Source of the DNA: a virus
Lineage: Duplodnaviria > Caudoviricetes
Reading direction: 5' to 3' (one strand)
IMG/VR virus record: IMGVR_UViG_3300020121_000067
Coordinates: 1-56,400 of that record
DNA length: 56,400 bases
The notes beneath the pieces were generated by a model. The model saw only the letters and a list, made by a program, of their open reading frames with translations. It ran no database searches and was not told the DNA's origin. Both the position numbers and the translations under genes were made by a program. Positions 3,124-43,514 of the stretch are shown piece after piece (positions within the stretch are counted from its first letter, which is position 1; every line of letters begins with the position of its first letter).

Positions 3124-3135
3124 GGGACACCTCCC

Positions 3136-3393: not shown

Positions 3394-3413
3394 GGCGTCT
3401 CAATCACCCTGCC

Positions 3414-15172: not shown

Positions 15173-15924
15173 CAGTGCCTCACTCCGAACCTGCGAATCT
15201 TTCCACTCCCACGACACACTGGACATGCGGCCTGCGAAGCTCCGCCATCGGGCAGCGCGACCTGCATGGTTCCACTGCCGCCACACCTGCCGCAGGGATC
15301 GCTCGCCGGGGATTCCTCCAGCCTGCGACGTTCGTTCATCGCCTTGCGTCTCGCTGCGGGAGTTTCAGCGAGGTTTATATCGGCCTCGGCGGTTTCGAGT
15401 CCCGCTGCTACCGCGTCGCGGTCTCCTTCCGCTGCTTCTCGGATGGCTTCGGCTTGAGGGTCTTCAGCATAATCTGTGTCGTCCTGCGTATGGCCATCAG
15501 GTTGTTCAGTTGCTTCCGACACGCTTCTATATTCTTGTCTATTTGTCGAAGGCACTTTTCTAGCGTCATGTGATCCTCCAGCGGCGGCGTTAACCGCAAA
15601 CATCTTCGTGTCCGTTGGCGTCACCAGCATCAGCGATTCCACGTCGGCGGGGAGTGACTGCACCACGGCGCTGACCACCGAGCTGAACGCGAGGTCGTGG
15701 ATGCGCAGCACGGCGATGGCTCCATGACGGAAGAGAGATAACACCGGTGGAGTAGAGTCGAGGGAGCGCGGGCCAGTGGTTATGGGCTTAGCGGCGGATG
15801 CCACTGGCTGAGAGGTTGCGCTCCTGCTACGCGGGATGAAGTGTCCCCGCGAGTCACGTTGTCGTGGGGGGATCTGGCTCGGCGGTGCTGAGTTTGTCTG
15901 CATGGTTTTCTTCCGGGTTGGCAT
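15172..15924 (-). CDS. Hypothetical protein with C-terminal DnaJ-type Zn finger
   Basis: CGRCGGSG...CPVCRGSG. Confidence 0.7.
   Translation of the reverse strand: MPTRKKTMQTNSAPPSQIPPRQRDSRGHFIPRSRSATSQPVASAAKPITTGPRSLDSTPPVLSLFRHGAIAVLRIHDLAFSSVVSAVVQSLPADVESLMLVTPTDTKMFAVNAAAGGSHDARKVPSTNRQEYRSVSEATEQPDGHTQDDTDYAEDPQAEAIREAAEGDRDAVAAGLETAEADINLAETPAARRKAMNERRRLEESPASDPCGRCGGSGTMQVALPDGGASQAACPVCRGSGKIRRFGVRH
15408..15569 (-). CDS. Nested out-of-frame 53-aa coiled-coil ORF (MTLEKCLRQIDKNIEACRKQLNNL...)
   Basis: GGAGG 5 nt before ATG; heptad-like pattern; entirely inside 15172..15924. Confidence 0.4.
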   Translation of the reverse strand: MTLEKCLRQIDKNIEACRKQLNNLMAIRRTTQIMLKTLKPKPSEKQRKETATR

Positions 15925-17328: not shown

Positions 17329-18009
17329 TTACTTCGTGGATTGCTGCATCGCGATGAGCGTACTACTGTTCTCGCCAGAGTGCAACAAATATTGCTCGGC
17401 TATGTAGCGGGAGTAGGCGGGAGGGATTGCCTCCCGCGTCTCATGTCGTGTCATCCACGTCAGCCCCATCTCCCTGCCCCATAGCTTCTCTGGGTCTTGC
17501 CTGCCAAACTCCGCGTAGATGCGCTGACGACTTTCCTCCCGATGAGGATTCAACACTGGCTTATCCACTTTACAACGCGGGCGCGACGCGGGCAGGAATG
17601 GAGACTCGAACAGCCTATGCCGATGTACTCGCATCCCGAACATGGTTCCACACAATACCAAGGGATTACGCAGTGGCGCGCCCACTACATTCTCAATGAC
17701 CCACGGAACTCCCAGCTTTAACAATAGCTCCCGAAGAGGTTCTATCAACATCGGTTGCGGGGCGGCTAAATGCCGCATAGCAGCCGAATACGACTGGCAT
17801 GGCGGACTGGCCCATATGAAATCGAACTTCCTTCCTATACGCCTCGCTACGGCAATCGCATCGCCCTGAATAAAATCATGTCCACAGTAGTTCTTCTGCC
17901 ACTTGATATCCACTCCCGTAACGTGAGCCTCAGGCCACGCCTGAATCATTCCCATCGTGGCCCCGCCCGCGCAACAATACAAATCCAGCACCCGCCGTGG
18001 AGGATTCAT
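17329..18009 (-). CDS. Short C5-cytosine DNA methyltransferase
   Basis: Motif I 'LDLYCCAGG', IV 'ASPPCQ', VI 'IENV', VIII 'RHRLFE'. Confidence 0.88.
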   Translation of the reverse strand: MNPPRRVLDLYCCAGGATMGMIQAWPEAHVTGVDIKWQKNYCGHDFIQGDAIAVARRIGRKFDFIWASPPCQSYSAAMRHLAAPQPMLIEPLRELLLKLGVPWVIENVVGAPLRNPLVLCGTMFGMRVHRHRLFESPFLPASRPRCKVDKPVLNPHREESRQRIYAEFGRQDPEKLWGREMGLTWMTRHETREAIPPAYSRYIAEQYLLHSGENSSTLIAMQQSTK

Positions 18010-19697: not shown

Positions 19698-19919
19698 ATG
19701 CCACGTATGCACAAAACAGCCCAGATAGAGCAGCAGTTGCCGATATTACTGGAATACGTCCGTATCATGCCACAGCGGGATCGCGATTATATCCCGCAAC
19801 TGATTGCCAGCGCTGAGACCATCTTGTATGCCATTCAAGAGGGTATGATTTCGCGGGACGGTGACACGTTTGAATTGACGGAGGAAGGTCTGAAGGTGTG
19901 GGGCGAGGTGACAGCATGA
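19698..19919 (+). CDS. Small protein with winged-helix-like C-terminus
   Basis: GGAGG RBS; 'EGMISRDGDTFELTEEGLK'. Confidence 0.7.
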   Translation: MPRMHKTAQIEQQLPILLEYVRIMPQRDRDYIPQLIASAETILYAIQEGMISRDGDTFELTEEGLKVWGEVTA

Positions 19920-20521
19920 GAGTGCTTGTTGCCTGTGAGTTCTCAGGCATTGTGCGCCGTGCATTCCGCGACCGTGGTCATGATGCCATAAGCTGCGATC
20001 TCCTTCCGGCTGAAGACGGATCACAGTATCACTTTCAGAAGGATATTTTGGAGGTGTTAAGGGAATCAGATTCCGAAGCATGGGATCTGATGATCGCGCA
20101 TCCTCCCTGCACTTATCTGGCGAATAGCGGAGTACGCTGGCTTTATACAAATGGCGTGGGTAGCAGACGCAATGAAGAGAGATGGACGCTTATGCGGGAA
20201 GCCGCACAGTTCTTTCTCGCCCTGTGGAACAGCGGAATACCTAGGATAGCCATTGAAAATCCCGTCATGCATGGACATGCCCGCCAGATCATAAAAAGGG
20301 CAGCGGACCAGAGAATCCATCCCTATCAATTCGGGCATGGAGAAACCAAGGAAACTCTTCTATGGTTGAGAAATTTACCTGTATTGAAATATACGAATGT
20401 GGTCAGCGGCAGAGTTCCCAGAGTCCATCATGAGCCGCCATCGGCTGACAGGTGGAAGAACCGCAGTCGTACCTATCAGGGAATCGCGGATGCAATGGCG
20501 GATCAGTGGGGAAAGGCTTAG
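19916..20521 (+). CDS. C5-cytosine methyltransferase-like protein (MRVLVACEFSG type)
   Basis: 'VLVACEFSG', 'IAHPPCTYL', 'IENPV', 'RSRTYQGIADAMADQWG'. Confidence 0.82.
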   Translation: MRVLVACEFSGIVRRAFRDRGHDAISCDLLPAEDGSQYHFQKDILEVLRESDSEAWDLMIAHPPCTYLANSGVRWLYTNGVGSRRNEERWTLMREAAQFFLALWNSGIPRIAIENPVMHGHARQIIKRAADQRIHPYQFGHGETKETLLWLRNLPVLKYTNVVSGRVPRVHHEPPSADRWKNRSRTYQGIADAMADQWGKA

Positions 20522-25629: not shown

Positions 25630-25690
25630 GCAAGGCTCTCCTGTGGGTGCTGCTTCGAGGGTGCTAGATGTGGGCGGGAGGGGTGAATAT

Positions 25691-26749
25691 TCACTCAGGT
25701 GGAGGAGCATTATTCATGATTGTCCACTTCAACTGCTTCAATTCGGCCGCGGGAGCATACCGGCTGATCCAGTCGGACACCTCACTGAGTGCGTTTCCAC
25801 ACTTTTTGCAACATTTGTGGGGGGCTACTGGCTTGAGCTGGTCGTTAGTTGCAGTATCACACTCCTCTGCAACTAACGCCTCTGCATCCGCTGGCAGTTC
25901 CAGCGTGTCCTCATCGAGGAGTAGATCCTTCTTGAGCATCTGGCCGTGGGAGCGTATCAGCCGCAGTCCCTGGGTCACGAGTTCAATCTGGGCGCATACC
26001 TCATGGGATCGGGGAGGATGGATGGTTAACAGTTCCCTTATGGCCTTACTAAGATCGGCAGCGGGAGCCACGGAATGCTGTAAGCAGCCAATGGCATAGT
26101 CATGGAGGTCGCGGTCGGATATGTCCCCCCACCAGAAGATAGTAGCTCCGAGGCGGAAGCGGAAGTGGCTCAGGGGAGCATCGGATGCGTCAACTCCCAA
26201 GGCCTCGATTGCTACATTGGAGACGGCGCCAGTGCCTGGGCGTGGGTCTCCTAGGTGCTTTATAAACTTGGACACGCGGGTGTTGTATTCCTGTATTTGC
26301 TCCCGGCTGGGCATTGTGTCTTGTATTGGTTCGTGGATAGCGATCCAGTGGAAATGCTTGAGGCTGCGCATGTACGGCTGGTTTTCCCAGAACCGTGCGA
26401 TGCGCTCCTCAGCGAGGCGAGATGCACATTCCAGACAGGTCTTCAGCCGGCAGGTGCGATGCTGCTCCTCGAACTGGTCGTGGTGGTCAGGGCAGCGGTG
26501 GATGCGCTTGGAGCCGCAGTCCTCGGATCGCCAAGATTTGGAATCCAGTCCCACGGCGGCGAGGGCCTTGGCGCGTGGGGAGCGGAGCTGGCGGACGCAT
26601 TGTGTCTCCGATTCCAGCGCGGCCATGATCTCCTCGTGCGAGGGCTCCGGCGCGCGGCAGGATTGCAAGGCGTCGAGGGAGGGGTCGTTGATTGAGGGGA
26701 GAGTGGGTAGGAATGACGTGCGAGGGGTGTTGCATGCGGCAGCTTGCAT
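25691..26749 (-). CDS. HUH rolling-circle Rep-like protein with degenerate catalytic motifs
   Basis: N-terminal 'DCGS...C...TCRLKTCLEC' Zn domain as in Rep_1/IS91 proteins; C-terminal 'GLRLIRSHGQM' and CxxC; the HUH and YxxK positions are not conserved. Confidence 0.6.
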   Translation of the reverse strand: MQAAACNTPRTSFLPTLPSINDPSLDALQSCRAPEPSHEEIMAALESETQCVRQLRSPRAKALAAVGLDSKSWRSEDCGSKRIHRCPDHHDQFEEQHRTCRLKTCLECASRLAEERIARFWENQPYMRSLKHFHWIAIHEPIQDTMPSREQIQEYNTRVSKFIKHLGDPRPGTGAVSNVAIEALGVDASDAPLSHFRFRLGATIFWWGDISDRDLHDYAIGCLQHSVAPAADLSKAIRELLTIHPPRSHEVCAQIELVTQGLRLIRSHGQMLKKDLLLDEDTLELPADAEALVAEECDTATNDQLKPVAPHKCCKKCGNALSEVSDWISRYAPAAELKQLKWTIMNNAPPPE

Positions 26750-26750
26750 A

Positions 26751-26858
26751 CAGAGTGGTGCTCCTATGTTCGGCGTTTAGCTCAGCAGAGGCCAGAAACG
26801 CCGGGGGGACGACAGCACGGGCCATCGTCCCACCTAATAGGAATTTCGACCACTCCTG
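26751..26858 (-). promoter_or_regulatory. Multi-stem structured 5' leader (or ssDNA origin) covering the RBS of the Rep-like gene
   Basis: Nested pairings GAGTGGT/ACCACTC, TCCTAT/ATAGGA, GGGACGATGGC/GCTGTCGTCCC, GGCGTTT/AAACGCC. Confidence 0.6.
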
Positions 26859-26963: not shown

Positions 26964-27869
26964 ATGCCGAAGATCAAATATCAGGATATAAACTTCAAAC
27001 CTGCATCCTTGGCCCTCATCGAGAAGGCCAACGAGATCATAGCAAGTTATCAGAGTCAGGGATATGACCTGACGCTTCGGCAGTTGTACTACCAGTTCGT
27101 CTCCCGCGACATCATTCCCAATACACAAGCTAGCTATAAGAACCTAGGCAGCGTGGTCAATGACGCAAGGCTGGCCGGGATGATCGACTGGAACGCGATT
27201 GTGGATCGCACCAGGGAACTGCGTGGACTGCCACACTGGAGTGATCCTAGCGATATCGTGGATAGTTGCTCAAGGCAGTTCAACATTGACAAGTGGAAGG
27301 ATCAGAAGTATCGACCAGAAGTGTGGATCGAGAAGGACGCACTGGCGGGAGTATTCGAGCGCGTGTGTAATGAATTAGATGTTCCCCTGTTCTCCTGTCG
27401 TGGATACACAAGCCAGAGCGAGATGTGGGTCGGCGCCCAGAGAATGCTTCGTTATCGCAAGCAGAAGCAGACTCCGATGATCCTCCACTTCGGAGATCAC
27501 GATCCCAGCGGAAAGGACATGTCGCGAGATATTCAGGATAGGCTGTGTCTATTCACTGGCCGGGAGATTGAATTTGAGCGGCTAGCGCTGAATATGGATC
27601 AGGTGAGGGAATATGATCCCCCACCGAATCCAGCGAAGGTTACGGACTCCCGAGCTAAGGGATACATCGCCGAGTTCGGGGACGAAAGCTGGGAGCTGGA
27701 TGCGCTGGAACCAAGCGTATTAGAGGAGTTGGTACGCGGGGCCATTGTCAAGGTAGTGGATGAGGAGAAGATGGAGGCCGCTGATAAGGAGCAGGAACGC
27801 CATCGTGAGACCTTGCAGCTTATATCTGAGAGGTTCGAGGAGTGTGAGGAGTTGGTGAGGAATGAATAA
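26964..27869 (+). CDS. Spo11/topoisomerase VI subunit A-like (JetD-related) Toprim protein
   Basis: Winged-helix 'LTLRQLYY', Toprim 'VWIEKDAL', 'RGY', 'GDHDPSG', C-terminal 'WELDAL'. Confidence 0.85.
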   Translation: MPKIKYQDINFKPASLALIEKANEIIASYQSQGYDLTLRQLYYQFVSRDIIPNTQASYKNLGSVVNDARLAGMIDWNAIVDRTRELRGLPHWSDPSDIVDSCSRQFNIDKWKDQKYRPEVWIEKDALAGVFERVCNELDVPLFSCRGYTSQSEMWVGAQRMLRYRKQKQTPMILHFGDHDPSGKDMSRDIQDRLCLFTGREIEFERLALNMDQVREYDPPPNPAKVTDSRAKGYIAEFGDESWELDALEPSVLEELVRGAIVKVVDEEKMEAADKEQERHRETLQLISERFEECEELVRNE

Positions 27870-29826: not shown

Positions 29827-30261
29827 ATGTCTAAGCCACGCACAGAAGCGGAGCGGGAAGCCCACAAACTTTACATGAAGCAGTATCATGCAAAGCGTCG
29901 TGCTGCTGATCCCGAATACAATCGCGTCTTTCTTGAGAGACTGGCCAAGGTAGAGTCCATGAGCGCTCAAGATATACAGATGCGTAGGCGAGCCTCTATG
30001 AATTGGGGACATAAGAATCCAGATAAACGTCGCGCTCACTATCTAGCCAAATTGAAGAACCCCATCGAACAGCCTTGTGCCGTATCTGGATGCGGCAACA
30101 AGGCCGAGCGCCATCATCCAGACTATTCCAAGCCGGAAGAAATTGTGTGGCTGTGTCGAAAACATCACAAAGAGGAGCACTTAAATGAAAAGAGAATTCA
30201 CGGATCGCTCAAGGATTCAAACTCGGGAGAGATGCCCCAGACGTTTTTGGCTGGAATATAA
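29827..30261 (+). CDS. HNH-type homing endonuclease-like protein
   Basis: 'PCAVSGC...ERHHPDYSKPEEIVWLCRKHHKEEH'. Confidence 0.75.
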   Translation: MSKPRTEAEREAHKLYMKQYHAKRRAADPEYNRVFLERLAKVESMSAQDIQMRRRASMNWGHKNPDKRRAHYLAKLKNPIEQPCAVSGCGNKAERHHPDYSKPEEIVWLCRKHHKEEHLNEKRIHGSLKDSNSGEMPQTFLAGI

Positions 30262-31867
30262 AGAAGCGGGCACCGGCATCGTGCCGAAGCGGACGCCGCT
30301 GGCCTTGGGCGTTGGTGGAGCTATCCATGAAGGCCTAGCTGCATTACTACAGCGTGGGCAGAAGCTCATAGATGATCCTCAGCCGGGGCTTGCATCTTGG
30401 CATATGGCATGGGGCGTGATTGAGGATGTAGCTGTCAGTGCTGCGCTGGCCGATTTCTCCGCGCACGCCTCCGGGCTGGAGCTGGATGCGAACGAGTCCG
30501 CCGCGCTGGGCGTGGTGCAGGCGGACGCGAAGCAGCTGGCCGAGCAGATGGTCGCGCAAGCGAGGGAGCTGGGCATGTCTGAGCAGGACATCGCAGGGAT
30601 CACGCAGGGGGTGGATCCAGCGGTCGCGAGGAGTGAATTCGAGCGGTATCTCTTTGCTGAGCAGTCGGCGCTGGTCGAGGCGCTGGTCCGGGCCTACGCG
30701 AGGCGGAGGCTGCGTCCGCTGCTGGAGGAGTTCGAGGTGCTGGAGGTGGAGCGGGAAGGGAGCTGGAAGCTCAGCGAATGGGACGCTGGTATAGAGACAA
30801 GCGATGGTGGCCCGCGACCCTATCAGCCTGTTTACTACGAACTCTGGTTCATGTCCCGTCCCGACGCGCTGCTCAGGCATCGCCAGTCGAATGAACTCTA
30901 TCTTCTGAGTTATAAGACCACCGGCGGCTGGGACGTGCGGAAGGCGAGGGACATTGAGCATGACATGCAGGGACTGAGTGAAGGGGTGGAGGTTGAGCGG
31001 CGGCTGGGGGAGTGGTGGGAGCATTTGACTTCAGCTCATCGTAACCTCTTGGATGTGGAGATCAGGGCAGTAGCTGATAAGTTCAAAACTACTCCAGCTA
31101 TGATTCAATATCTGGAGGCATTGTCATCTGCGCCGCGCATCCATGCCATCCGCTACGAATTCCTGCTGAAGGGGGAGCGGTGGAAGGACAAGGAACTATC
31201 AGCGAGGCTGGGGATCGAGGCGCGGAGCCAGCAGAGTCATTTGATCCGGCAGTATGTGGCGACATCCACGCCCAAGAAGGGGGATGGTGGATACAGCGTA
31301 GGAGACGTGGCGTGGAGCTGGGATTTTTACAGAATTGAAGATAATAAAGACAGCAAACTCAGCTGGCAAAATTGGCACTCGCGTCCGGTGGAGGATGTGA
31401 AAGCGTGGATCGACAAGCTCGACTCCAGTGACCTCCTGATGTCCGGCGAGGACTCCACCGTAGGGCTAGCGCCGCGGCAGCTGGGATGGAAGTCCCAGGC
31501 GCAGGCGATGGGCGTCACGAAGGAGCATCCCTTGGAGAAGGTGTTCGTGCCGGCGGTGACGATATTCAGGAATGACGATCAGCTGCGCGACTGGGTAGAG
31601 CAGGTGGAACATGCGGAGCGGGAAGTGGCGATTCACGTCGCTGAGGTGAATGCCGCGAGCGATCCTGGCGAGAAGCGGTCGCTGTTGAATCGCTATTTTC
31701 CACAGGTGAGGCAATCCTGTGAATATCCTGGGACTTGTCCGTATGCGAGGGATCGAGTCTCCGTGTGCTGGGGCAGCGCGGAGATGCAGGTTGATCCCTT
31801 GGGGGTGGGCGGCGGGGAATACGTGCGGCGAGTGGCGAACCATCCGCAGGAGGTGTCGCATGACTGA
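30185..31867 (+). CDS. PD-(D/E)XK (Cas4/RecB-like) exonuclease
   Basis: 'CPRRFWLEY', 'GGAIHEGL', 'RPDAL...SYKT', C-terminal Cys cluster 'CEYPGTCPY...C'. Confidence 0.82.
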   Translation: MKREFTDRSRIQTRERCPRRFWLEYKEAGTGIVPKRTPLALGVGGAIHEGLAALLQRGQKLIDDPQPGLASWHMAWGVIEDVAVSAALADFSAHASGLELDANESAALGVVQADAKQLAEQMVAQARELGMSEQDIAGITQGVDPAVARSEFERYLFAEQSALVEALVRAYARRRLRPLLEEFEVLEVEREGSWKLSEWDAGIETSDGGPRPYQPVYYELWFMSRPDALLRHRQSNELYLLSYKTTGGWDVRKARDIEHDMQGLSEGVEVERRLGEWWEHLTSAHRNLLDVEIRAVADKFKTTPAMIQYLEALSSAPRIHAIRYEFLLKGERWKDKELSARLGIEARSQQSHLIRQYVATSTPKKGDGGYSVGDVAWSWDFYRIEDNKDSKLSWQNWHSRPVEDVKAWIDKLDSSDLLMSGEDSTVGLAPRQLGWKSQAQAMGVTKEHPLEKVFVPAVTIFRNDDQLRDWVEQVEHAEREVAIHVAEVNAASDPGEKRSLLNRYFPQVRQSCEYPGTCPYARDRVSVCWGSAEMQVDPLGVGGGEYVRRVANHPQEVSHD

Positions 31868-32063
31868 AGTATATGTGCTCAAGGAAACCGACTACTACGA
31901 CAACACTGGAATATCCGGAGTAACAACCCGCAAGGACGTGGCGGACTATTGGGAAACCCTTTCTGGCTGCTGGGTGGAGACCGCCACGCTTGATGATTTG
32001 TCGGATTACCGACTGGAAAGATTCAGGCCGAAGGAAGCGCAACCTGTAGACATAAAAAAGTAA
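31860..32063 (+). CDS. Hypothetical protein
   Basis: AGGAGG RBS, ATG 31860. Confidence 0.65.
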   Translation: MTEVYVLKETDYYDNTGISGVTTRKDVADYWETLSGCWVETATLDDLSDYRLERFRPKEAQPVDIKK

Positions 32064-32083
32064 CCTTCCCCCACATTATGTAG

Positions 32084-32113
32084 TTGACAATGATTGTGGA
32101 TAGGAGCTAGTAT
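32084..32113 (+). promoter_or_regulatory. Sigma70-type promoter
   Basis: TTGACA-18 nt-TAGTAT in an intergenic gap. Confidence 0.6.
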
Positions 32114-32144
32114 CGCATCCTCGAAGTAAACGGATTACACACTC

Positions 32145-32315
32145 ATGCAGCAGTCAAAACATAAGTCTCATTGCCAGTGCGGATGCGGGAAGCAGTTTCG
32201 GCCCAAGGTGCGGTGGCAGAAGTACGCCACGATCAGGTGCAAGAACCGTGCGGCGGCTGCGAGGCTCCGCGAACGAGCGAGAATGAATGGGCATCAGGCG
32301 GTGAGTCGTGGCTAA
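32145..32315 (+). CDS. CGNR-like Zn-finger protein, 56 aa
   Basis: 'CQCGCGKQF...QKYATIRCKNRAAAARLR'. Confidence 0.65.
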   Translation: MQQSKHKSHCQCGCGKQFRPKVRWQKYATIRCKNRAAAARLRERARMNGHQAVSRG

Positions 32316-32496
32316 GATTCTAATCAATAACTCTCATTATGTGGTTTCAACGCAGTACTGTACTAATGCAGTTGGTGGCAGCAATCCCGATGGAAAAACA
32401 GTCTTTATAAGACAAAAGAGAACCAACAAGGAGATACAAATTCCCATGAATATTTGGGAGAAGATAGTCATGGCCGTGGAGGAAAGAAATGGCTAA
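32308..32496 (+). CDS. Hypothetical protein (AT-richer insert)
   Basis: 62-aa ORF overlapping both neighbours by 8 nt. Confidence 0.6.
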   Translation: MAKILINNSHYVVSTQYCTNAVGGSNPDGKTVFIRQKRTNKEIQIPMNIWEKIVMAVEERNG

Positions 32497-33538
32497 ATCC
32501 ATCTGCCTCTACGCCGCGACCGGCTGCTGGAAGTCCACGCAGATCAAGTTCTTCGCCCGCCGTATAGCCGAGGTCACCGGCAAGGCGACTCTTCTCCTGT
32601 CCACCGACGGCGGCGGCTGGGCCCCGTGCGAGCCGGAGATCATCGCTGGGATGATTATCCCGTGGAGGATGGAGACCGCCTACACGCCGCTGTCACTATT
32701 ACGGAAGGTATCGCAGGGCTACTGGCCTAAGAACGTGGATCAGATCAACGAGGCCATTGCCAGCGGATTCGCCACTGGGCAGCTCGACCTTGAGAATTCC
32801 AGCATGGTTCCTATCGACTGGACGAAGATCGGAGGCATGGCCGTAGAAGGTCTTACCTCCCTGTCCGAGATGATGATGCGGTTCTTGCCGGACAAGGGAC
32901 TCGCCGTGGGAGGCCAGTCTCGCAATGGTAACAACATGAGCTTCCAGCAAGGCGTAGTGGTGAATGGCGAGGCCACGCTGGAGACCTTCTCCAGCAATAC
33001 GCAGGGCGACTATGGCTGGGTGCCCAATCAGATTTATGGGATTGTCAACAACCTGAACTCCCTACCATGTCACTCGATCATGTACACCGCCTTGGAGGCC
33101 AAGGGCAAGGACGATGATGGCAGCACGGTCTATGGCCCGGATCTCCCAGGGAAGAAGGCCACGGCCAAGTGTGGCCCGTGGTTCGGTGATCTTATTCATG
33201 GTCAGGATTATCCCGTGCCGAGAACAGTGAAGGTTCCCGATCCGGCGGATTCATCGAAGCAGATGGATCAGGTGGTAGTGGACGTGGCAGTGAGGATGTT
33301 CTATCGGAAGCATCCCGATCCGAGCACTGGGATACTATTCCCGGCCAAGCCGCGCTGTGCGCCGGAGAAGATAGCAGAGCTGGAAGCGGAGTTCCCCGGG
33401 GGATTTTTCACACCCACTACGGAATATGGGCTGGATCGCTACATGAGCGCAGTGGACAGGCTAGCGGCGGACGCCAGTCGCGGGGAATCGCTGCTGAACT
33501 GGAGAGATCGCGCGGACAAGCTCCTTGGGAGGAAATAG
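32489..33538 (+). CDS. Sak4/AAA_24-like P-loop ATPase (recombination)
   Basis: Walker A variant 'AATGCWKST', Walker B variant 'AVEGLT', 'YGPDLPGKKA'; sits between exonuclease and SSB-like gene. Confidence 0.75.
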   Translation: MAKSICLYAATGCWKSTQIKFFARRIAEVTGKATLLLSTDGGGWAPCEPEIIAGMIIPWRMETAYTPLSLLRKVSQGYWPKNVDQINEAIASGFATGQLDLENSSMVPIDWTKIGGMAVEGLTSLSEMMMRFLPDKGLAVGGQSRNGNNMSFQQGVVVNGEATLETFSSNTQGDYGWVPNQIYGIVNNLNSLPCHSIMYTALEAKGKDDDGSTVYGPDLPGKKATAKCGPWFGDLIHGQDYPVPRTVKVPDPADSSKQMDQVVVDVAVRMFYRKHPDPSTGILFPAKPRCAPEKIAELEAEFPGGFFTPTTEYGLDRYMSAVDRLAADASRGESLLNWRDRADKLLGRK

Positions 33539-33540
33539 TT

Positions 33541-33675
33541 ATGTTCTTATGCACAGAATGCCATGCCAAAACTGACTGCAAAAACAAGCAGCTAGAGGAA
33601 ATTCCTTTTGGCATGAGCTATGGAAAATGTGAGAGCTGTGGCCAGACCAAGCCCTGCGCTGACTGCCACGGATAA
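33541..33675 (+). CDS. Cys-rich 44-aa protein (CTECH...CESCG...CADCH)
   Basis: GGGAGG RBS; seven Cys. Confidence 0.65.
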   Translation: MFLCTECHAKTDCKNKQLEEIPFGMSYGKCESCGQTKPCADCHG

Positions 33676-33748
33676 CCAAGTTCGCAACACAAGCCCGCCC
33701 CTGCGCGGGGGAGTCACACGCAGCGGAATCTTAAATTGAGGAGACATC

Positions 33749-34618
33749 ATGGCAAGCAATCCATTCGCAACGGGCGGTGCGCAACCGGGAACGGCCGCGT
33801 CCCCCTTCGGAAACACCACCAACCAGCCAGCGACAGCGCCGAATGGCGTAACCGCTGCTCCACAGCCTGACAACCAGACCCAGCACGTCCCGGAGCCGCT
33901 GCCCTCGCTTGACGATCCGGGGCTCACCTCGGAATCGCTCACCGCGAAGGAAGGCGACGCCTTCGCAGCGCCACCGCCGGCGCCGGACGGAATCTACCGC
34001 GTTAAGTTGAAACTCCGGGGAGTGAAGGCCGAGGACGTGGGAGGCGCTGACATCTCGCAGTACACCAACGGCGCGGAGGTCGCACCGTGGGTTACGGGAG
34101 TGGCCAAGGACCGCCAGGGGAACGTCACCGGCACCTTCGCCAAGACGATCATGGACGTGCAGATCATCGATCCTAAGTTCCCGGAACTCGCTGATACCTA
34201 TCTCCAGGTGCCGTTCAAATGGATGGACACGCGCAGTAGCCAGAAGGGACTGTCGAAGATCATGACGATCCTGACGCTGGCCGGGAAGCGTCCGGACGGG
34301 CAGCCCTGGGTGGTCGTGGGGCAGAATTACAGCCACCGTACGCTGATGGAGACGTTTGTGAAGTTCCTCGCCGGGGAGCCAGAGCTACTGGCCAGGTCGG
34401 AGTGGTCGGCGAGCTGCGATGTCTGCGGGCAGGCGGCGAAGGCGAGTGGCACGGCGTATCCCAAGTCCACCGACGGCATGAATCGCTTCCCGCCGCTGCC
34501 GGGTAAACCGGGGCAGTACTCACCGGACCTGCCGTGCCTGGTGAACCGCGCGCACGGCACGACCAAGGCGCGGGCGATGGTGGTGCAGTATTACTCGCTG
34601 GATTACAAGGCGAAGTAG
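33749..34618 (+). CDS. Putative ssDNA-binding protein (DUF669-like)
   Basis: 'PPPAPDGIYRVKL' motif; position after the Sak4-like ATPase; GAGGAG RBS. Confidence 0.55.
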   Translation: MASNPFATGGAQPGTAASPFGNTTNQPATAPNGVTAAPQPDNQTQHVPEPLPSLDDPGLTSESLTAKEGDAFAAPPPAPDGIYRVKLKLRGVKAEDVGGADISQYTNGAEVAPWVTGVAKDRQGNVTGTFAKTIMDVQIIDPKFPELADTYLQVPFKWMDTRSSQKGLSKIMTILTLAGKRPDGQPWVVVGQNYSHRTLMETFVKFLAGEPELLARSEWSASCDVCGQAAKASGTAYPKSTDGMNRFPPLPGKPGQYSPDLPCLVNRAHGTTKARAMVVQYYSLDYKAK

Positions 34619-34623
34619 CAAGA

Positions 34624-34774
34624 TTAGGGATGCTCGGAACGGCAACGTCCGGGGGCGTGGGCAGTAACACGACGTAACCATCCCTGATGATTCCGCCATC
34701 AGTGCTCATTCTCTTTGGGTTGCGCTGATGGCGGGATTGATATAGCGCTCTCTAATCAGAGGGTTATATCAATC
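34624..34774 (+). ncRNA. Candidate structured RNA: three-way junction plus two long hairpins
   Basis: AGGGATG/CATCCCT; 15-bp TTCCGCCATCAGTGC/GCGCTGATGGCGGGA; 12-bp GATTGATATAGC/GTTATATCAATC; G-U pairs favour the + strand. Confidence 0.55.
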
Positions 34775-34804
34775 TAAGTAATACATAACAAAAGGAGAAT
34801 ACTC

Positions 34805-35191
34805 ATGGACATCGCATTGTTGCTGGAGTCCCACCGCACCAACCTGCTCAAAGACCTGAATGGAAGACTGGAAGGCCATCATAATCTAACGCCGTATCAG
34901 ATAGTGGAGATTTGCTACGACCGCGCCACAATCAAGACGCTGCTGGACAATATCAGTAATGGACAGCAGCCAGCCGGTCACGCAGTCACCGGAACGAACA
35001 CGACCACCATCACCACCCGCAGGGTGAAAGCCGGGAGCAAGAAGGCCCGGGATCGCGCGCTCAAGGCGGGGGAGACTCGGCGCAGGAACCTAGCGGCGAA
35101 GGCGGGTCAGGGGAACCTTGCTCCGGCGGGCGGGGCAACCAACTCCAACGAGTCGGAGGCCACATTCCGCAGTGAAGGCGGTGGCCAGTGA
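34805..35191 (+). CDS. Hypothetical protein with basic C-terminus
   Basis: AAAGGAG RBS. Confidence 0.7.
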   Translation: MDIALLLESHRTNLLKDLNGRLEGHHNLTPYQIVEICYDRATIKTLLDNISNGQQPAGHAVTGTNTTTITTRRVKAGSKKARDRALKAGETRRRNLAAKAGQGNLAPAGGATNSNESEATFRSEGGGQ

Positions 35192-35502
35192 GCACAGTCA
35201 ATGAACTGAAGCGACAGGCCCTAGATGCCGTAGAGGGCCTGTACTCTGCCTGTGAGCGAGATGTGGAGAAGTTGGAAGCTAAGGTGCTGGAACTGGAAGA
35301 GGAGTTGGAAGAGATTGATGAAGGTGAAAAGATTGATCCTGATCCTGAGTGGGGAAACTGCCGTCGTGGATGTCCTCCAGCATTTATCAACAGCCGTGGG
35401 TTCTGCTCCCCCGCCTGCGCGATGGGAGCGCCGAGGGGAGAGTTCGTCACGCTCAACGCCAGCACGGTTGTCAGCGCGGCTGGTGGATTGTTCGGCAGCT
35501 AG
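35188..35502 (+). CDS. Coiled-coil plus Cys-motif hypothetical protein
   Basis: GTGA coupling; CRRGC...FCSPAC. Confidence 0.65.
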   Translation: MSTVNELKRQALDAVEGLYSACERDVEKLEAKVLELEEELEEIDEGEKIDPDPEWGNCRRGCPPAFINSRGFCSPACAMGAPRGEFVTLNASTVVSAAGGLFGS

Positions 35503-35700
35503 ATGCCGCCGCGATCAGACCTCCATCCCCGAGGCAGCGGTTACCACTCCGCCAAGGAGCTGGAGAGCATCCGCCTCGTGGCGAGGCGGGATCAGGACTC
35601 GCGGATTACGGTCTGCGCGGACTGCGGGCGGGAGCGAACCAACATAAAGCGTCACCGGGGGAGTAAACAATGCAAGAAGCCAAGAGCGATTACGACCTGA
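35503..35700 (+). CDS. Small Zn-finger protein
   Basis: CADCG...HRGSKQC. Confidence 0.55.
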   Translation: MPPRSDLHPRGSGYHSAKELESIRLVARRDQDSRITVCADCGRERTNIKRHRGSKQCKKPRAITT

Positions 35701-37037
35701 TGGATGAGGGACTGGCGGAGGAACAGGTCGCGAGAGCCGAGACTCCACCGCCGTGCAAGTTCACCACCGGTTGCGCCGGGACGGGAAAGACCTACAACGC
35801 GGTGAAGGCCGTGCAGGCCGATCCCAGCAGCGGCATCTTGAGTTCCACCACCGGAATCTCCGCCGTGAACCTCGGCGCAATCACGATCAATAGCCTTCTT
35901 AAATATAGTGATGTGAAGGTGATGCGCGATCACTTCCTCACCGGGGCACTCTCCCGCGTGCTCCATCCACTCGCGAAGGCCCATCGCTGGCTGGTCATAG
36001 ATGAAATCTCCATGTACGGCGGCGACGCGCTGGACATTCTCTATCGCGCGGTAGAGGAGGCGAATCGCTACGTGGATGTACCGGAGCCGATGGGGATACA
36101 CATCATCGGGGATCTAGCGCAGCTACCGCCGGTGAGGGCGCCGTGGGTGTTCACCGCCGCGTGCTGGGAGCGGTTCCGGGAGAACACGGAGACATTGACC
36201 AAGGTGTGGAGGCAGGGCGACACGCGGTTCCTCTCGGCGCTGAATCTAGTTCGCTGTGGTGAAGGAGCTGCTGCTGCCGAAGCCCTGACCTCCCTCGGAG
36301 CAGTGTTCCACTCTGCGCTGGACACTGAGTTCGACGGGACCACGATCCTGCCGCGGAACGATCAGGTCTAGCGCTACAACGCGCTGGCGCTGGATCGAGT
36401 GCCGGGGAAGAAGTTCAAGGTGACCTCCCGCCGCTGGGGCCAGCAACGCAGCGAGTGGGGCCAGAACATCCGTACGAAGGAGTGGGGGATCCCACCGGAG
36501 GTGGAGCTGAAGGTCGGGGCGTATGTGATGCTGCTGGCCAATCACTCAGAATTTGAATGGGTAAACGGAGATTGTGGCTGGATAGTTGCCTATGGAATTG
36601 ATGGCCCGGATACATGGATTGAAATCAGGCTGGTAAGAACTAACAATGTAATTAGGCTTATGCCGCTGGTGCGCGGCGTAGAGTCCTCCGACCGTCCCGC
36701 CAGCTGGAGCTCCACCGCGCAGAAGGTCCCGGCATCGCAGGATGACGGTGGCTGGCTCCCACGACCGCACTACCGCAGCCGGGTGAAGCGGTATGTGAGT
36801 GGGCAGATCAGTTACTTTCCATTGCGGTTGGCTTATGCTACGTCGGTTCATAAGAGCCAGAGCCTCACCTTGGACAGAGTACAAGTGGACTTCCGGAACA
36901 ACTTCTTTAGTCAGCCAGCCATGCTCTATGTTTCTTTGAGCCGCTGTCGCTCACTCCAGGGACTGCGGCTCGTGGGGCAACCTGAGGTGTTCGCCAAGCA
37001 CTGCAACTTCGATGAAAGGATTCGTGAATGGTTATAG
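35670..37037 (+). CDS. Pif1-like SF1B helicase interrupted by one in-frame TAG (36369-36371)
   Basis: 'TGCAGTGKT', 'IDEISM', 'GDLAQLPPV', 'WRQ.D' before the TAG; 'LKVGAYVMLLAN..VNG..G', 'PLRLAYATSVHKSQSLTL', 'YVSLSR' after it in the same frame. Confidence 0.88.
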
Positions 37038-38564: not shown

Positions 38565-41500
38565 GCCATCGCCACAAGCCGCAGTCGTGTGTTGGCTGTC
38601 CGTGTCATGACCATGGGAACGATTTCTCCGCCGTGGAAGGCACAGGCTCAAGCGGAGTTATGTTCGTTGGCGAGGGCAGCGGAGAACATGAGCAGCTGGA
38701 TCAGCTTCCATTTCGACCCTATGCTCCCAGTGGAGCTGTGCTAGAACGCTGCCTGCGGAGAATGGGACTGGACAGGAAGCAGTTCTCCATCACCAACTGC
38801 ATTCGCTGCCGGCCGCGGAAGAACTGGTTAGAGTCGGCGCCGTGGGAATACTCCGCGCTCCGCCAGTGCAGGCCGAACCTCGACTCTGCGATTGCGCAGT
38901 ACCGTCCGAGGTGCATTGTCGCTCTCGGAGGAGTGGCGCTGCGGGAGCTGACCGGGGAGGCTGGCGAGGCGAGGGGGGTAACGCATCTTGCGGGCTACAT
39001 CATGCCATTAGCATCACAGACATCAGAACACTCAGTAACCTCGCCAGATGATGCGCCTTGGGCCACTAAGCGAATTCCAAACGTAGGAGCCATTCCAACT
39101 ATCGCTAATTTCCATCCAAGCTACCTCCGCCGGGGCAAGGCCTCGCACCAGGGAGTGTTCTCGCGGATCATCCAGCGGGGGCTGGTGGTCGCATCAGGCA
39201 GGGATAGGAATTACATGTGGGGGGTCGATCCTGATGACTCGGCGACATGGCAGCAGCCGGACGGATCACGCTTGCAATACTGGACTCACCCCACGATGGA
39301 CCAGGCGCGGTCAGTGTTGCGCTACCTCGAAGACAATCCCAATCTCCCGGTGGCCAAGGACATCGAAACCAGTGAATCATCATCGCTGGATGAGGACGCT
39401 CGGGAGGGATTCAGCGACACCGAGGTGCGACTGTTCCAGCTTAGCTACCAGCCCGGGACCGGGATAGCGATTCCCTACACGGGAGAGTTCAAAGACATCG
39501 TGAGACGAATGCTGCATCTCAGGAACCCGTTCTATGGTCACAACTGGGACAACTTCGATCATAAGGTGTTGCGCGCAGCCGCGGCACGTGAGGGATGGAC
39601 GTATGCGCCAACACAACGATGCTTCGACACGCTTGATATGTATCATCATTGGCAGCCTGACCTACCTGCTCATCTCCAGTTTTGCTCTAGCTTTATCAAT
39701 TTTCCTTTCCCTTGGAAGCATCTGGCCGCTACTAATATTGAGTTCTATGGTATTTGTGACGTGGATGCTGATTTACAACTTGGACAATTTCTTGAACGGA
39801 CGTTGAAAAAGGACAATTTATGGGGATCAGGCAATGAATATTCCCTGACCACGGGCTACACCGGACAGGAGCGCGAAGTCCGGCCAGTGCTGGCTGCGAT
39901 GGAGGATCGCGGGGTGCCGATTGATGACGCGGCGAGGATCAGGCTGGGAGCGGAGTTCGAGGCCGCACAGCGGGAACTTGGCGCTGCATTGCTACCGAGG
40001 TTCCCGGAGTCGGCGAAAAAACTGGATCCCTACAAGACATTCCCGCCGGAGTTGAAAAAGCTGCCCGAGGCTGAATGGTCGAAGCTGTTCCGGGAGCCTG
40101 ACAAGTGGAAATGCAAATGTGGTCGTGAGAACAAGATGGATGCTCTTGCCTGTGGGAAGTGCGCACGGTCGCAGGACGATGGAAAGATAAAAGCTGGGAA
40201 GTGGTATCGCTACGGCCAGCGTGAGGTGGATGAGGCAGGGCTGGACGCTGGAGGGGAACCCACGCTGGTGAAGGCACTCCGCTGGTGCTACATCCCGGAG
40301 TTCAATCCTAACTCCGGCAAGATGCTCATCGAATATATGAAGGCGATGGGGCATAAGGTTCCTAAGTCCAAGATCGAGGACGATGAAGGCAACCAGAAAG
40401 ACACCACCGCGGCGAAGGAACTCCAGCGCCTGGCAGTGAAGACCAATGATGACTTTTACCTGAAGGTGATCGAGTACCGCGGGCTGACGAAGCTGCGCGG
40501 AACCTATGTCGATGGCTTTCGTCCGGGGAGCGATGGCCGGGTGCATACGACGTTCACGTTTCAAACGGCGATTGCGCAACTCTCGGCCAGGAATCCGAAC
40601 ACAACTAACATTCCTAAGCTCAAGCCCACTCCCGCGCTGGCCAAGGCCATCCGGGGCATGGTACGTGCGGACGATGGCTGTGTGTTGGCTGAGGTGGATT
40701 TCAAGTCCTGCCACGTGATCACGCTGGGGCTGCTGGCCAATGATCCAATTTACACGCGTCTTGGCAGGTTGGACATTCATAGCGCTGTGGCTGGCCATTT
40801 CCTTGGACACTGGAACCTGAAGGAGATTATCAATGAAACGGATGAACAACTCCTTGCTAGATTTAAATGGCTTAAGAGCGACCCGGAACGCAAGCGTGTC
40901 CGCGATGACCAGGCCAAGCATGCAATCCTCGGAATCGGAAATGGACTCCGCGCGAAGGGACTATTTGAACGATATATGGAGTCGTTTCCGCCGCGAACGT
41001 GTCCATCCTGTGGAGGAACCACTAGAGTCGCTGGCGTCCGAGGACTTAAGAGATGTCCTATGTGCGGAGGAACTGGACGGCAGTCTGGATTAGGCATCGC
41101 GGATTCAATTTTGTCAATGTGCGAGGAAGACCTGTTCGGTGCGGTGTTTATATATCAGGAGGAGCAGCGCAAGGAAGCACATGAGACACAACGCCTGCGT
41201 ACCCCCTTCGGTCATCAGCGGAGGTTCTACGAGGTCTATCGCTGGGATGGTCGCAAGGGGATCTGGTCGCACGGTGATCAGGCAGAGGAGGCAGTCGCTT
41301 ATCGCCTTGCCAACACGGCTCATGCTCATATGCGAGAGGTTATGAAGGAGCTGGCGCAGCAGGGGCTGGATGAGAAGTATGGCCTGTTCAACATGGTACA
41401 CGACTCGCTGATGTTCCACTTCCCGGAAGCGTTACTGGAGTCATTCCCCCGGGAGGTGTTCCCGGTGATGACCGCCGAGTCCAAGGTCATGCTGGGACTG

Positions 41501-41620: not shown

Positions 41621-41808
41621 GAGTTCATTGCATACGCTGTCATTCACCGCTGGCGCCGGTGCTCTACGACGATGACGGAACCATGCTGGTGTGGATATGC
41701 GGATGTCTGGCTTTGGGGTCATTTAATGATCGTCCTCGCGTAACCGCGAGATATTGGGACAAGAACGGCCCCGCTCCGGCGTGGCTGTTAGAGGAGGCAT
41801 CAATATGA
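41608..41808 (+). CDS. Small Cys-rich protein
   Basis: GGAGG RBS; CIRC...CGC. Confidence 0.5.
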   Translation: MCCVGVHCIRCHSPLAPVLYDDDGTMLVWICGCLALGSFNDRPRVTARYWDKNGPAPAWLLEEASI

Positions 41809-42260
41809 TAGACACCAAGGGATTTCTAGCTAAGTGTAAACAGGCCGCGATGAACCTGGGCCTGAGCTGGCCGGGGTACGTGGCTGCTGAGGCTGCGCTG
41901 GAATCGCGCTATGGAACGTCGCAGCTGGCCGTTCAAGCCATGAACCTCTTCGGCATGAAAATGCACAAAGGTACTCCAATCGAGGACACGCTGGCCCTCC
42001 CCACGAAGGAGTTTATCAATGGCCAGTGGATATCCACCGTGGCTCATTGGATGAAATACCCTGACTGGGAGGCGTGCCTACGCGACCGCCAAGCCACGCT
42101 CCTGCGACTGGCTCCTACGTATCCCAGCTATCAGGCCGCGTTAGATGCGAGTGATGGAGAGACCTTCGTGCGGGAAGTGTCATCCACGTGGAGCACCGAT
42201 CCCCATCGCGCGGACAAGGTTCTGGAGATTTACAACGAGAACCAGGATGTGCTGGCCTAA
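41805..42260 (+). CDS. Endolysin, GH73 (FlgJ-like) glucosaminidase
   Basis: 'AEAALESRYG...NLFGMK...TKEF...WSTDP'. Confidence 0.88.
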   Translation: MIDTKGFLAKCKQAAMNLGLSWPGYVAAEAALESRYGTSQLAVQAMNLFGMKMHKGTPIEDTLALPTKEFINGQWISTVAHWMKYPDWEACLRDRQATLLRLAPTYPSYQAALDASDGETFVREVSSTWSTDPHRADKVLEIYNENQDVLA

Positions 42261-42263
42261 TTT

Positions 42264-42710
42264 ATGTACACAAAAACAGTTAGTTTAGAAGATCGCTTCT
42301 TGAGTAAGGTGTCGCCAGAGCCAAACACCGGATGCTGGCTATGGATGGCCAATGTTACTCCTAGCGGGTATGGGATGTTTCAAATTGGCAGCTATAAAAA
42401 TGGAAAAATGGTTCCGGCTCACAGGGTAAGCCATGAATTATTTAAGGGCCCGATACCTGAAGGTCTAGAGATAGATCATCTGTGTCGAACTCCAGCCTGC
42501 GTTAACCCAGATCACATCGAAGCCGTTACTCGACAGGTGAACATATTGAGAGGAACAAACACCTGTGCCATAAACGCAAGAAAAACGCATTGTACTAAAG
42601 GGCATGCTCTAATTGGAGATAATGTTCGTATCTGGAAGGGGTGGAGAATATGCATAAAGTGTAACTCCATGAGGGGTAGGAAATTCCGGGAGAGGATGAG
42701 AAATGAATAA
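42264..42710 (+). CDS. HNH homing endonuclease
   Basis: 'GCWLW...GYG...AHRVS...IDHLCRTPACVNPDH...N' plus 'THCTKGH...CIKC'. Confidence 0.9.
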   Translation: MYTKTVSLEDRFLSKVSPEPNTGCWLWMANVTPSGYGMFQIGSYKNGKMVPAHRVSHELFKGPIPEGLEIDHLCRTPACVNPDHIEAVTRQVNILRGTNTCAINARKTHCTKGHALIGDNVRIWKGWRICIKCNSMRGRKFRERMRNE

Positions 42711-43071
42711 TTTTGTCGATCAACAACTGCCCATCGGACTGGTACTCGTGTTTGTGCAGAACTGGCTCAAGCAGCAGTCTTGGTTCCCTTGGCTGAACTA
42801 CCAATCCACCAAGGCCAATCACGCGTTCGCGATCATCACCACTGGCCTCGCCACGTTCGGCGTTCACATCTCTCACACCGGGACATTCGTCTCGGGAGGC
42901 TCCGTCCTGCTGACCTTCCCCGCCGGAACGGTGATGCTGGCAGGGCTGTGGCACTGGATACAGCAGTATGCCGTGACCAAGGGAGTGTACACGGGACTGC
43001 AATCGCAGTTGAATCCGCCAGCCGCGCAACAGCCAGCAGCGGTGGTTGAGACTAAGGATTTGAAGAAATGA
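42703..43071 (+). CDS. Putative holin/membrane protein
   Basis: Two to three hydrophobic segments, next to the endolysin. Confidence 0.6.
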   Translation: MNNFVDQQLPIGLVLVFVQNWLKQQSWFPWLNYQSTKANHAFAIITTGLATFGVHISHTGTFVSGGSVLLTFPAGTVMLAGLWHWIQQYAVTKGVYTGLQSQLNPPAAQQPAAVVETKDLKK

Positions 43072-43514
43072 GCGGAGCCGCATACAACACGGGCAACTCT
43101 AAACAGGATTACGAGACTCCACTTGATTTCATCGCAGCAGCAGAGAAGCGATTCGGCAAGCTGGACTTGGATCTGGCGGCTAGGGATGACAACAAAAAAG
43201 CTCCTGCTTATTTATCAGACTCACTCAACACAGACTGGCCTACAGATAAATTGTGTTGGCTCAATCCACCATTTGCACGAGTCGAACCGTGGGCGAGGAA
43301 GTGCCATGAGTCGGGCTCCAAAGTGTTGTTCCTCGTCCCTGCTAGCACCGGATCAAAGTGGTTCATCGACTACGTATTCATGAAATCGCTGGTGCTGTTT
43401 CTGTACCCGCGCATTCCATTCGATAAGACTCGGCCCAAATGGGGATTTCCTAAGGACTGCATACTGGCAGTCTACGGAGGCACCCCCGGATTTGAAACTT
43501 GGAAATGGAAATAA
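43068..43514 (+). CDS. Phage N6-adenine DNA methyltransferase (Dam-like)
   Basis: 'DYETP...LDLAA...WLNPPF...LVPASTGSKWF'. Confidence 0.85.
   Translation: MSGAAYNTGNSKQDYETPLDFIAAAEKRFGKLDLDLAARDDNKKAPAYLSDSLNTDWPTDKLCWLNPPFARVEPWARKCHESGSKVLFLVPASTGSKWFIDYVFMKSLVLFLYPRIPFDKTRPKWGFPKDCILAVYGGTPGFETWKWK

Follow-up and report, generated by a model that had tools for sequence, protein, structure and literature searches.

An A-family DNA polymerase (PolA) in which the glutamate of the steric gate is replaced by histidine is encoded by the uncultured, soil-type phage record IMGVR_UViG_3300020121_000067 of IMG/VR, whose whole length of 56,400 bases, bounded by direct terminal repeats, was taken as the window for this study. 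The gene (P0001; 38561..41620, + strand) is an open reading frame (ORF) of 1019 residues in which a uracil-DNA glycosylase (UDG), a 3'-5' exonuclease and a PolA domain are fused. Alignment to the Klenow fragment of Escherichia coli confirmed that His occupies the gate position of E710, Leu that of F762, Asn that of Y766 and Ser that of E883. The most probable interpretation of these changes is that the protein is an ordinary primer-dependent replicase, selective for deoxynucleoside triphosphates (dNTPs) but built on a different pocket, in an uncultured phage of about 56 kilobases (kb).

Domain architecture and active-site residues

The UDG superfamily domain PF03167 was recognized by Pfam at residues 30-194 (E=4e-19), and DNA_pol_A (PF00476) scored 91.8 bits against a cut-off of 34.3, being above the cut-off in the genome search as well. 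The protein was also assigned to phrog_17, DNA polymerase, in PHROGs (E=2.7e-51). An AlphaFold model built on 58 family members gave a mean predicted local distance difference test (pLDDT) of 86.8 and a predicted template modelling (pTM) score of 0.82. The best solved Foldseek matches of this model were the Klenow, Bst and Taq large fragments, with template modelling scores by target of 0.70-0.78 and E values of about 1e-20 (4.6e-21 for 1kfs), indicating a Klenow-type fold with a 3'-5' exonuclease domain.

The UDG domain (38579..39205, +) belongs to family 4, as supported by a match to TIGR00758 and by family-4 UDG chains in the Protein Data Bank (PDB). It carries a GE-x-SG motif (E38), an FHPS motif (H185) and four cysteines (C10, C13, C83 and C103). 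GEGSG/E38 and FHPS/H185 were aligned by phmmer with the same motifs of TM0511, and Thermus and archaeal family-4 chains were matched too. Amongst homologue rows with a residue at the position, E38 was found in 193 of 199, H185 in 215 of 225, C83 in 201 of 215 and C103 in 213 of 217. The catalytic Glu and His motifs are therefore kept at the sequence level, and glycosylase activity is predicted. In the exonuclease domain (39338..39820, +), D355, E357, D424, Y497 and D501 of Klenow were matched by hhalign to D267, E269, D333, Y396 and D400, which are kept in 219-233 of the aligned homologue rows. The thumb contains a zinc-ribbon-like insert of four cysteines (C518, C520, C531 and C534; 40112..40162, +), read from the translation, which lies within a stretch left unaligned to E. 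coli PolA by hhalign and is variable in the family consensus.

The active-site residues were mapped onto E. coli polA from NC_000913.3, in which residues 668, 705, 710, 754, 758, 762, 766, 882 and 883 were checked to be R, D, E, R, K, F, Y, D and E. The 58-sequence family alignment was compared with E. coli PolA by hhalign (overall probability 98.3%), and the mapping was confirmed by MAFFT with Klenow, N4 gp39, the SP-10 polymerase and nine family members. Motif A, D713-F-K-S-C-H718 (40697..40714, +), pairs D705 with D713, I709 with C717 and E710 with H718, so that the catalytic Asp is followed by His at the steric gate; its DFKSCH was aligned with DYSQIE of Taq both by phmmer against Taq chains and by the 58-sequence family profile. 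Motif B on the O-helix, R781...K786...L790...N794-G795 (40901..40945, +), pairs K758, F762, G763, Y766 and G767 with K786, L790, G791, N794 and G795, respectively. Motif C, V-H947-D948-S949 (41396..41407, +), corresponds to V-H881-D882-E883, and the family profile aligned its VHDS to VHDE of Taq. Base 40697 is the first of the D713 codon and base 41407 the last of the S949 codon.

A further substitution, beyond those listed in the first-pass annotation, was found at R668, the Arg of the TGR motif, where both hhalign and MAFFT placed Gln673 (40577..40579, +). In the motif 6 region (E909...Y914...N918; 41285..41314, +) R841, N845 and Q849 of Klenow have no like-for-like equivalents, and E909, an aromatic residue at 914 and N918 are conserved instead; the residue equivalences are uncertain and were left unassigned because both alignments are gapped there. 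In the AlphaFold model D713 ends a strand (707-714) and H718 opens a helix (717-725), while K786 and L790 lie on helix 775-793 with N794 at its end, an arrangement which we take to be that of Klenow.

Amongst the hallmarks of family A, D713 of motif A, K786 of motif B and H947-D948 of motif C are kept, whereas the Glu gate, the O-helix Tyr and the TGR Arg are replaced by His718, Asn794 and Gln673. On model and alignment together, the protein has a Klenow-type fold, both metal-binding Asp residues, the O-helix Lys and a complete proofreading site. The first-pass annotation had assigned motifs A, B and C with His at E710 and Asn at Y766, and had noted that both catalytic Asp residues and the Exo motifs are retained; these assignments agree with hhalign and MAFFT (motif A also with phmmer and the profile), and all five carboxylate and Tyr residues of the exonuclease are present. 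Its statement that Leu at 762 occurs in other phage PolAs is matched by the published clusters (Czernecki 2023, PMC10201439). VHDS, which it had listed as a deviation from VHDE, is not unusual: SP-10 has VHDS, N4 gp39 has IHDA and the polymerase of Thermus phage Tt72 is active with D615-S616 (PMC9324360).

Extent of the clade and variation in the pocket

In a word-indexed search with residues 560-1019, 8000 candidates were scored and 246 proteins had E<=0.001. The best 120 of these close homologues, which were used for further comparison, show 52-100% identity, and most have about 950-1060 residues with both Pfam domains. When 1.84 billion 50%-identity representatives were searched exhaustively with HMMER, 11,239 proteins had E<=0.001 and 605 reached E<=1e-30; the 150 strongest matches were used. 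These sequences point to a large and apparently undescribed group of UDG-exonuclease-PolA fusions. Residues were counted in 265 sequences from the two sets, aligned to the family hidden Markov model.

At the gate position His was found in 251 of the 265 sequences, with 10 gaps, two Glu, one Trp and one Val; His718 is thus present in 251 of the 255 rows having a residue there, and the Trp and Val come from sequences that are disrupted or truncated. All 120 close homologues carry it. The best 150 representatives gave 136 His, 10 gaps, two Glu and two others (136 of 140 with a residue), and since His718 is invariant to this degree in both sets it is attributable neither to chance nor to error. 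Gln occupies position 673 in 247 of the 265 rows, and Q673 occurs jointly with H718 in 242 rows against two with Arg and Glu. The other combinations are mostly polymerases with a disrupted alignment at the TGR-equivalent motif, three of which show an intein-like junction. The two Arg and Glu sequences (P0259 and P0265) form the nearest outgroup and have a canonical motif A, D-W-x-G-I-E, and Tyr at 766.

Position 766 varies far more. The close set has 118 Asn and two Phe, whereas the best 150 representatives have 76 Phe, 22 Leu, 20 Asn, five Tyr, two Asp, one Arg, one Ser and 23 gaps; basal members of the clade have Phe or Leu, and a few Tyr. A FastTree phylogeny was built from 235 polymerase domains over 437 match columns, 30 sequences with less than 80% coverage having been dropped. 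It required one change at the gate and 31 at position 766, with the Asn type forming one large derived block and a few scattered cases. By these counts the His gate is old and fixed, and Asn at 766 is young and local to the derived subclade of the window. The first-pass annotation had proposed that E710H and Y766N might co-vary in a clade; this did not hold, because His is clade-wide whereas Asn is confined to one derived subclade, and the tight partner of His718 is Gln673 rather than residue 766.

The Asn subclade has Cys717 adjoining the gate, the pairs at 717 and 766 being C+N in 110 rows, F+F in 58 and F+N in 22. A DnaJ-type double CxxCxGxG zinc finger (C814...G839; 41000..41077, +), read from the sequence, is inserted in the fingers after the O and O1 helices and is absent from Klenow in the hhalign alignment. 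At least four cysteines were found at this insert in 109 of 133 Asn-type homologues against 3 of 78 Phe-type homologues, indicating from the alignment that the zinc finger was gained in the Asn subclade. A second DnaJ-type CxxCxGxG motif was seen elsewhere in the window, at the C-terminus of a 250-residue protein (15172-15924, -), where PF00684 scored below its cut-off (E=2.4e-4).

The last residue of motif C is Ser in 160, Ala in 51 and Glu in 10 of the 237 rows with a residue, and practically all rows with a residue retain D713, K786 and H947-D948. Several homologous polymerases of 1200-1400 residues contain inteins, with Hint/intein Pfam domains recognized in P0006 and P0029. The intein of P0127, P0185 and P0197 interrupts the TGR-replacing motif, where an intein-like '...SHN|S' junction is seen. 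Inteins are usually found in essential sites of working enzymes. The conservation indicates that the catalytic, proofreading and substituted residues are all under strict selection. The impression of the first-pass annotation that the enzyme does not look dead was upheld by this strong conservation of the active-site motifs and by the inteins in the TGR-replacing motif of homologues.

Proposed function of the pocket and its alternatives

E710 and Y766 have been described as "universally conserved" in A-family polymerases and the hydrogen bond between them as "invariant" (Hohlbein et al., PMC3715850). The same source reports that the two residues are hydrogen-bonded in the closed complex, that Y766F is near wild type and that E710A, E710Q and Y766A are mutators. 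The TGR motif is reported to be conserved even in single-subunit RNA polymerases, and both the gate (A2) and B4 to be highly conserved across 19 clusters, Phe at B4 of the DpoZ clusters being described as a unique substitution (Czernecki et al., PMC10201439). In Bst polymerase Q797, R615, E658 and D830 (Klenow Q849, R668, E710 and D882) are adjacent and interact electrostatically (PMC10520511). A T7 study has argued that native Leu762-type PolAs need compensatory changes in sugar positioning (bioRxiv 10.64898/2026.05.20.726624).

In the window polymerase the residues that line the canonical pocket around the sugar and nascent base pair, R668/E710/Y766, have become Gln673/His718/Asn794, and Leu790 replaces the Phe or Tyr that presses the sugar onto the gate. 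Replacement of Arg and Glu by Gln and His would be a charge-neutral swap of an interacting pair in which hydrogen-bonding capacity is kept, and would place the aromatic ring of His718 where the aliphatic part of Glu sits under C2' of the incoming sugar. Aromatic gate residues block the 2'-hydroxyl in other polymerase families; the imidazole of His718 would take over this role, and the enzyme would therefore remain a primer-dependent, dNTP-selective DNA polymerase. With Glu lost, the Tyr hydroxyl would be left without its hydrogen-bond partner, and position 766 could have drifted to Phe or Leu and later to Asn in the subclade of the window, a drift that fits the nearly wild-type behaviour of Y766F in Klenow. 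His718 may also be a compensating change for Leu at 762. By analogy with the SP15-like UDG-PolAs, the UDG domain probably clears uracil from the template before it is copied; the protein most likely serves ordinary replication of the phage DNA, to which uracil removal is coupled.

Several observations weigh against this interpretation. Klenow E710Q and E710A are reported to weaken badly both correct-dNTP binding and the closing of the fingers (PMC3715850, Table 1), and a normally working His gate depends on compensation because these mutants are so severe. The differences at R668, E710, F762, Y766 and motif 6 together exceed a like-for-like swap and would fit a changed specificity. Furthermore, no alignment of motif B to any PDB chain was obtained by HMMER with either phmmer or the family profile, and the equivalent of R754 is ambiguous, one additional residue lying between R781 and K786 in the hhalign alignment.

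Another possibility is that the pocket is conventional after all, with another acidic or aromatic residue filling the gate or position 766 in three dimensions. The equivalences at these positions rest on alignments and predicted helices rather than residue-level superposition, HMMER left motif B unaligned to solved chains, and two residues close by in sequence, the aromatic Y/F914 and E711, are invariant and nearly invariant, respectively. An artefact of this kind is nevertheless very improbable. Motif A was agreed by four methods with the ungapped D+5 spacing of Klenow, and motif B was supported by hhalign, MAFFT, an exact K-x4-G-x3-G spacing and its position within the predicted O-helix (775-793, ending at N794). 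E711 and the aromatic residue at 914 are not replacements, because the outgroup P0259 has both as well as Glu and Tyr. Even less credible is a degenerate polymerase, in which the polymerase site would be inactive and the protein would serve as a UDG/exonuclease or scaffold; although three residues described as universally conserved (PMC3715850) are missing, the changed residues, both Asp, the Lys and His947 are strictly conserved down to homologues of about 32% identity, and no second DNA polymerase was found in the window by Pfam, PHROGs or genome profile searches.

A pocket that serves a non-standard substrate or template, either DNA with modified bases or, through position 766, the bypass of abasic sites made by the UDG, is unlikely but deserves more weight. 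R668 and the minor-groove-reading residues of motif 6 are all changed, and those characterised UDG-PolAs whose UDG looks active belong to phages that have modified thymidine (PMC10201439, PMC13697223). SP15-like enzymes bypass abasic sites, mostly inserting deoxyadenosine (PMC13697223), and the KlenTaq Tyr equivalent to Y766 fills the gap of a missing template base and guides purine insertion (PMC11273360); it is position 766 that varies in the clade (F 76, L 22, N 20 and Y 5 in the best 150 representatives, as counted above). Against this, known modifications of thymidine occupy the major groove; it is the minor groove and the sugar that the changed residues read. Amongst 53 scanned ORFs no base-modification genes were detected by Pfam or PHROGs (thymidylate-synthase-like, dCTP deaminase, dUTPase, hydroxymethyluracil (hmU) kinase, PurZ and 7-deazaguanine genes), which is weak evidence because about 60% of the ORFs have no family. 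A genome containing 2-aminoadenine (Z-genome) was rejected for want of a PurZ-like (adenylosuccinate synthetase family) match. The genome carries at least three ordinary DNA methyltransferases, namely 17329-18009 (-), 19898-20521 (+) and 43068-43514 (+), of which one is C5-cytosine-like, one matches phrog_757 and one is Dam-like; they suggest protection by ordinary methylation rather than base replacement.

As the first-pass annotation had proposed, loss of the Glu gate could also relax sugar discrimination, allowing incorporation or extension of ribonucleoside triphosphates (rNTPs) and even chain starting, which would explain the absent primase gene. The steric-gate Glu and the helper Phe/Tyr762 are both gone, Klenow E710A lowers rNTP discrimination (PMC3715850, citing Astatke 1998), and the searches turned up no primase family, either in the record between its terminal repeats or in the conserved neighbours of 32 related loci. 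This possibility is regarded as decidedly unlikely. The His side chain is no smaller than that of Glu and hence does not open the gate in the manner of Ala or Gly, and in its fold, its proofreading domain and its Lys/Asp set the protein matches primer-dependent PolAs. To our knowledge no PolA starts chains de novo. Many phages without a primase rely on host primase, transcripts or recombination, and the Sak4-like, PD-(D/E)XK, UvrD-like and Dda-like genes of the window fit recombination-dependent replication; moreover, the record is 66% complete according to CheckV and most of its ORFs are unannotated.

The ordinary, dNTP-selective replicase favoured here resembles several known PolAs in architecture. 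SPO1-like UDG-PolAs (SPO1, SP-10; Czernecki 2023, Missoury 2026) have the same order of family-4 UDG, 3'-5' exonuclease and PolA and likewise keep the catalytic motifs of the UDG, and the SP-10 polymerase shares VHDS at motif C; unlike the window polymerase, it keeps the TGR Arg, DYSQLE with Glu, and K...F...Y. No genes for thymidine modification were seen among the 53 scanned ORFs of the window, most of which match no family. The best GenBank phage matches of the outgroup P0259 were the polymerases of SP-10 and Bacillus phage Nachito (22% identity, with 88-96% of its length covered), and neither the window polymerase nor the basal member P0243 gave a tblastn match at E<=1e-5 with useful coverage against SPO1/SP-10 or YerA41/phiLo.

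The SP15-like enzymes (YerA41 and phiLo), described by cryogenic electron microscopy, also fuse a UDG to a replicative PolA, and their UDG is reported to be active, excising template deoxyuridine ahead of the fork with the equivalent Glu and His as catalytic residues (PMC13697223). They are larger (1306 residues in YerA41), with Insert 1, Insert 2 and a C-terminal domain, whereas the inserts of the window polymerase are two small motifs of zinc-binding type, and they keep the O-helix Phe, which is discussed there together with the Glu gate (PMC13697223). No sequence match of these enzymes to the window polymerase or its family profile was found in the PDB searched. N4-like UDG-PolAs (cluster 17; Czernecki 2023) have the same UDG-exonuclease-PolA architecture and are among the best fold matches in BFVD, all at 18% identity or less, and a Sak4-like gene lies near the polymerase in both N4 and the window. 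N4 gp39, however, keeps the TGR Arg, the Glu gate (DFASLE), Phe762 and Tyr766, four residues that the window polymerase lacks, and has IHDA as motif C; its UDG is described as lacking the catalytic residues (PMC10201439), in contrast to the UDG motifs kept here, and N4 encodes a primase, none being detected in the window.

Compared with canonical Pol I (Klenow, Bst and KlenTaq), the fold, the two catalytic Asp, the O-helix Lys, His881 and the exonuclease site are held in common, and the differences comprise R668Q, E710H, F762L, Y766N, E883S, a changed motif 6, the added UDG and the zinc-finger inserts. Leu at B3 (F762) is shared with the SPO2-like, phiJL001-like, APEX, CHEAP and phiVC8 DpoZ polymerases, which are described as keeping the gate residue and, except for Phe in the DpoZ clusters, the B4 Tyr (PMC10201439). 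None of 50,697 GenBank phage records covered 80% or more of the window polymerase or P0243 in tblastn searches, and 20 kb of the window gave no megablast match to GenBank phages; none of the GenBank phages searched is a member of the clade. No description of a His-gate PolA or of this clade was found in a literature search that was thin on subscription journals. Leu762 types, the HDS motif C and the UDG-PolA architecture were already known, and on these comparisons the His gate and its R668Q partner appear to be new.

Genome context and significance

The window encodes a major head protein, a portal, a large terminase, several DNA methyltransferases, an endolysin and an HNH endonuclease, as well as UvrD-like and Dda/PIF1-like helicases and Sak4-like and PD-(D/E)XK nuclease-like proteins (Pfam and PHROGs). 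The large terminase (947 residues; 11098-13941, -) bears an intein with a LAGLIDADG homing endonuclease domain (PF14528 and PF14890). Genes for a glucosaminidase-type endolysin and an HNH endonuclease (41754-42710, +) lie directly 3' of the polymerase, followed by the Dam-like methyltransferase. A 352-residue ORF (25691-26749, -) without a family match overlaps + strand ORFs at 25668-26099 and 26121-26780, and this minus-strand ORF within a + strand block is probably not a gene.

Four genes, compared with PHROGs and Pfam, form a replication module upstream of the polymerase (30185..37037, +), encoding a PD-(D/E)XK nuclease-like protein of 560 residues (30185-31867, +), a Sak4-like protein (32489-33538, +), a 289-residue protein of no assigned family (33749-34618, +) and a Dda/PIF1-like helicase (35670-37037, +). 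ORFs were clustered across the window and 32 related IMG/VR loci, mostly on contigs of 54-66 kb, giving 33 records. The upstream order was found to be conserved, with a PD-(D/E)XK-like protein of about 548 residues, a Sak4-like protein of about 347, a protein of about 252 and a Dda/PIF1-like helicase of about 456 preceding the UDG-PolA, and 17-25 of the 33 records have these families there. The 560-residue protein gave nothing credible against the PDB with phmmer, and an Atlas search with its C-terminal half gave only PD-(D/E)XK-type leads. A lone in-frame TAG (36369-36371) interrupts the helicase gene, leaving two ORFs in the same frame; the gene is uninterrupted in 12 related loci, where the ORF has about 456 residues and Asp, Ser or Arg stands at the TAG position. 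Recoding of the stop codon was rejected, since TAG ends 19 of the 69 called ORFs and there are no transfer RNA genes, which makes a nonsense mutation or assembly error likelier.

The first-pass annotation had also remarked on a missing primase. No primase family was detected at relaxed thresholds in up to 53 ORFs of the window and extra + strand ORFs (Pfam, PHROGs and NCBIfam) or by Pfam among 22 neighbour-cluster representatives of the 32 related loci, and the N4 primase, SSB and exonuclease gave no tblastn match to the window. As evidence of true absence this is weak because most ORFs match no family. A 301-residue protein (26964-27869, +) has no Pfam family and is assigned to phrog_6247, DNA topoisomerase, by PHROGs. 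It is very widespread: every one of the 8000 candidates scored for it reached E<=0.001, and identities of 68-100% in the best 120 make it far more conserved than the polymerase. An Atlas search offered a Spo11/TopoVI-A Toprim lead (score 0.89), nothing in the PDB was matched by its profile, and its model (pLDDT 75) yielded weak Foldseek rows (best E 8e-3), including Topo VI-A and OLD nucleases. A primase role for this protein was not supported, the Toprim lead and the weak Foldseek rows being insufficient for any assignment.

Relatives were also found on seven fragments of metagenome-assembled genomes, binned as Terracidiphilus, Terriglobia, Acidobacteriota, Solirubrobacterales, Salinisphaerales and a Halobacteriales archaeon, and soil Acidobacteriota are a weak lead as hosts. 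One Acidobacteriota contig of 2.5 Mb (L042) matches only residues 218-391 of the polymerase, at 3001-3510 and 49% identity; this fragment may be a prophage remnant and a host lead.

A clade of 605 representatives (E<=1e-30) that keeps none of R668, E710 and Y766 and yet is strictly selected constitutes a natural experiment in which sugar selection, minor-groove checking and the closing of the fingers are built differently. It may be of interest to polymerase engineers, who open the same gate by mutation for the use of modified nucleotides. It is also conceivable, though rather unlikely on the sequences, that this is a widespread natural PolA lineage which, having neither the carboxylate gate nor the Arg minor-groove sensor, handles the sugar or the metal unlike every characterised PolA. 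Were this so, examples might be a useful incorporation or extension of ribo- or 2'-modified nucleotides, or a site favouring manganese, with His718 near a pocket in which only two carboxylates are left, and these phages might replicate from transcripts or nicks without a primase of their own.

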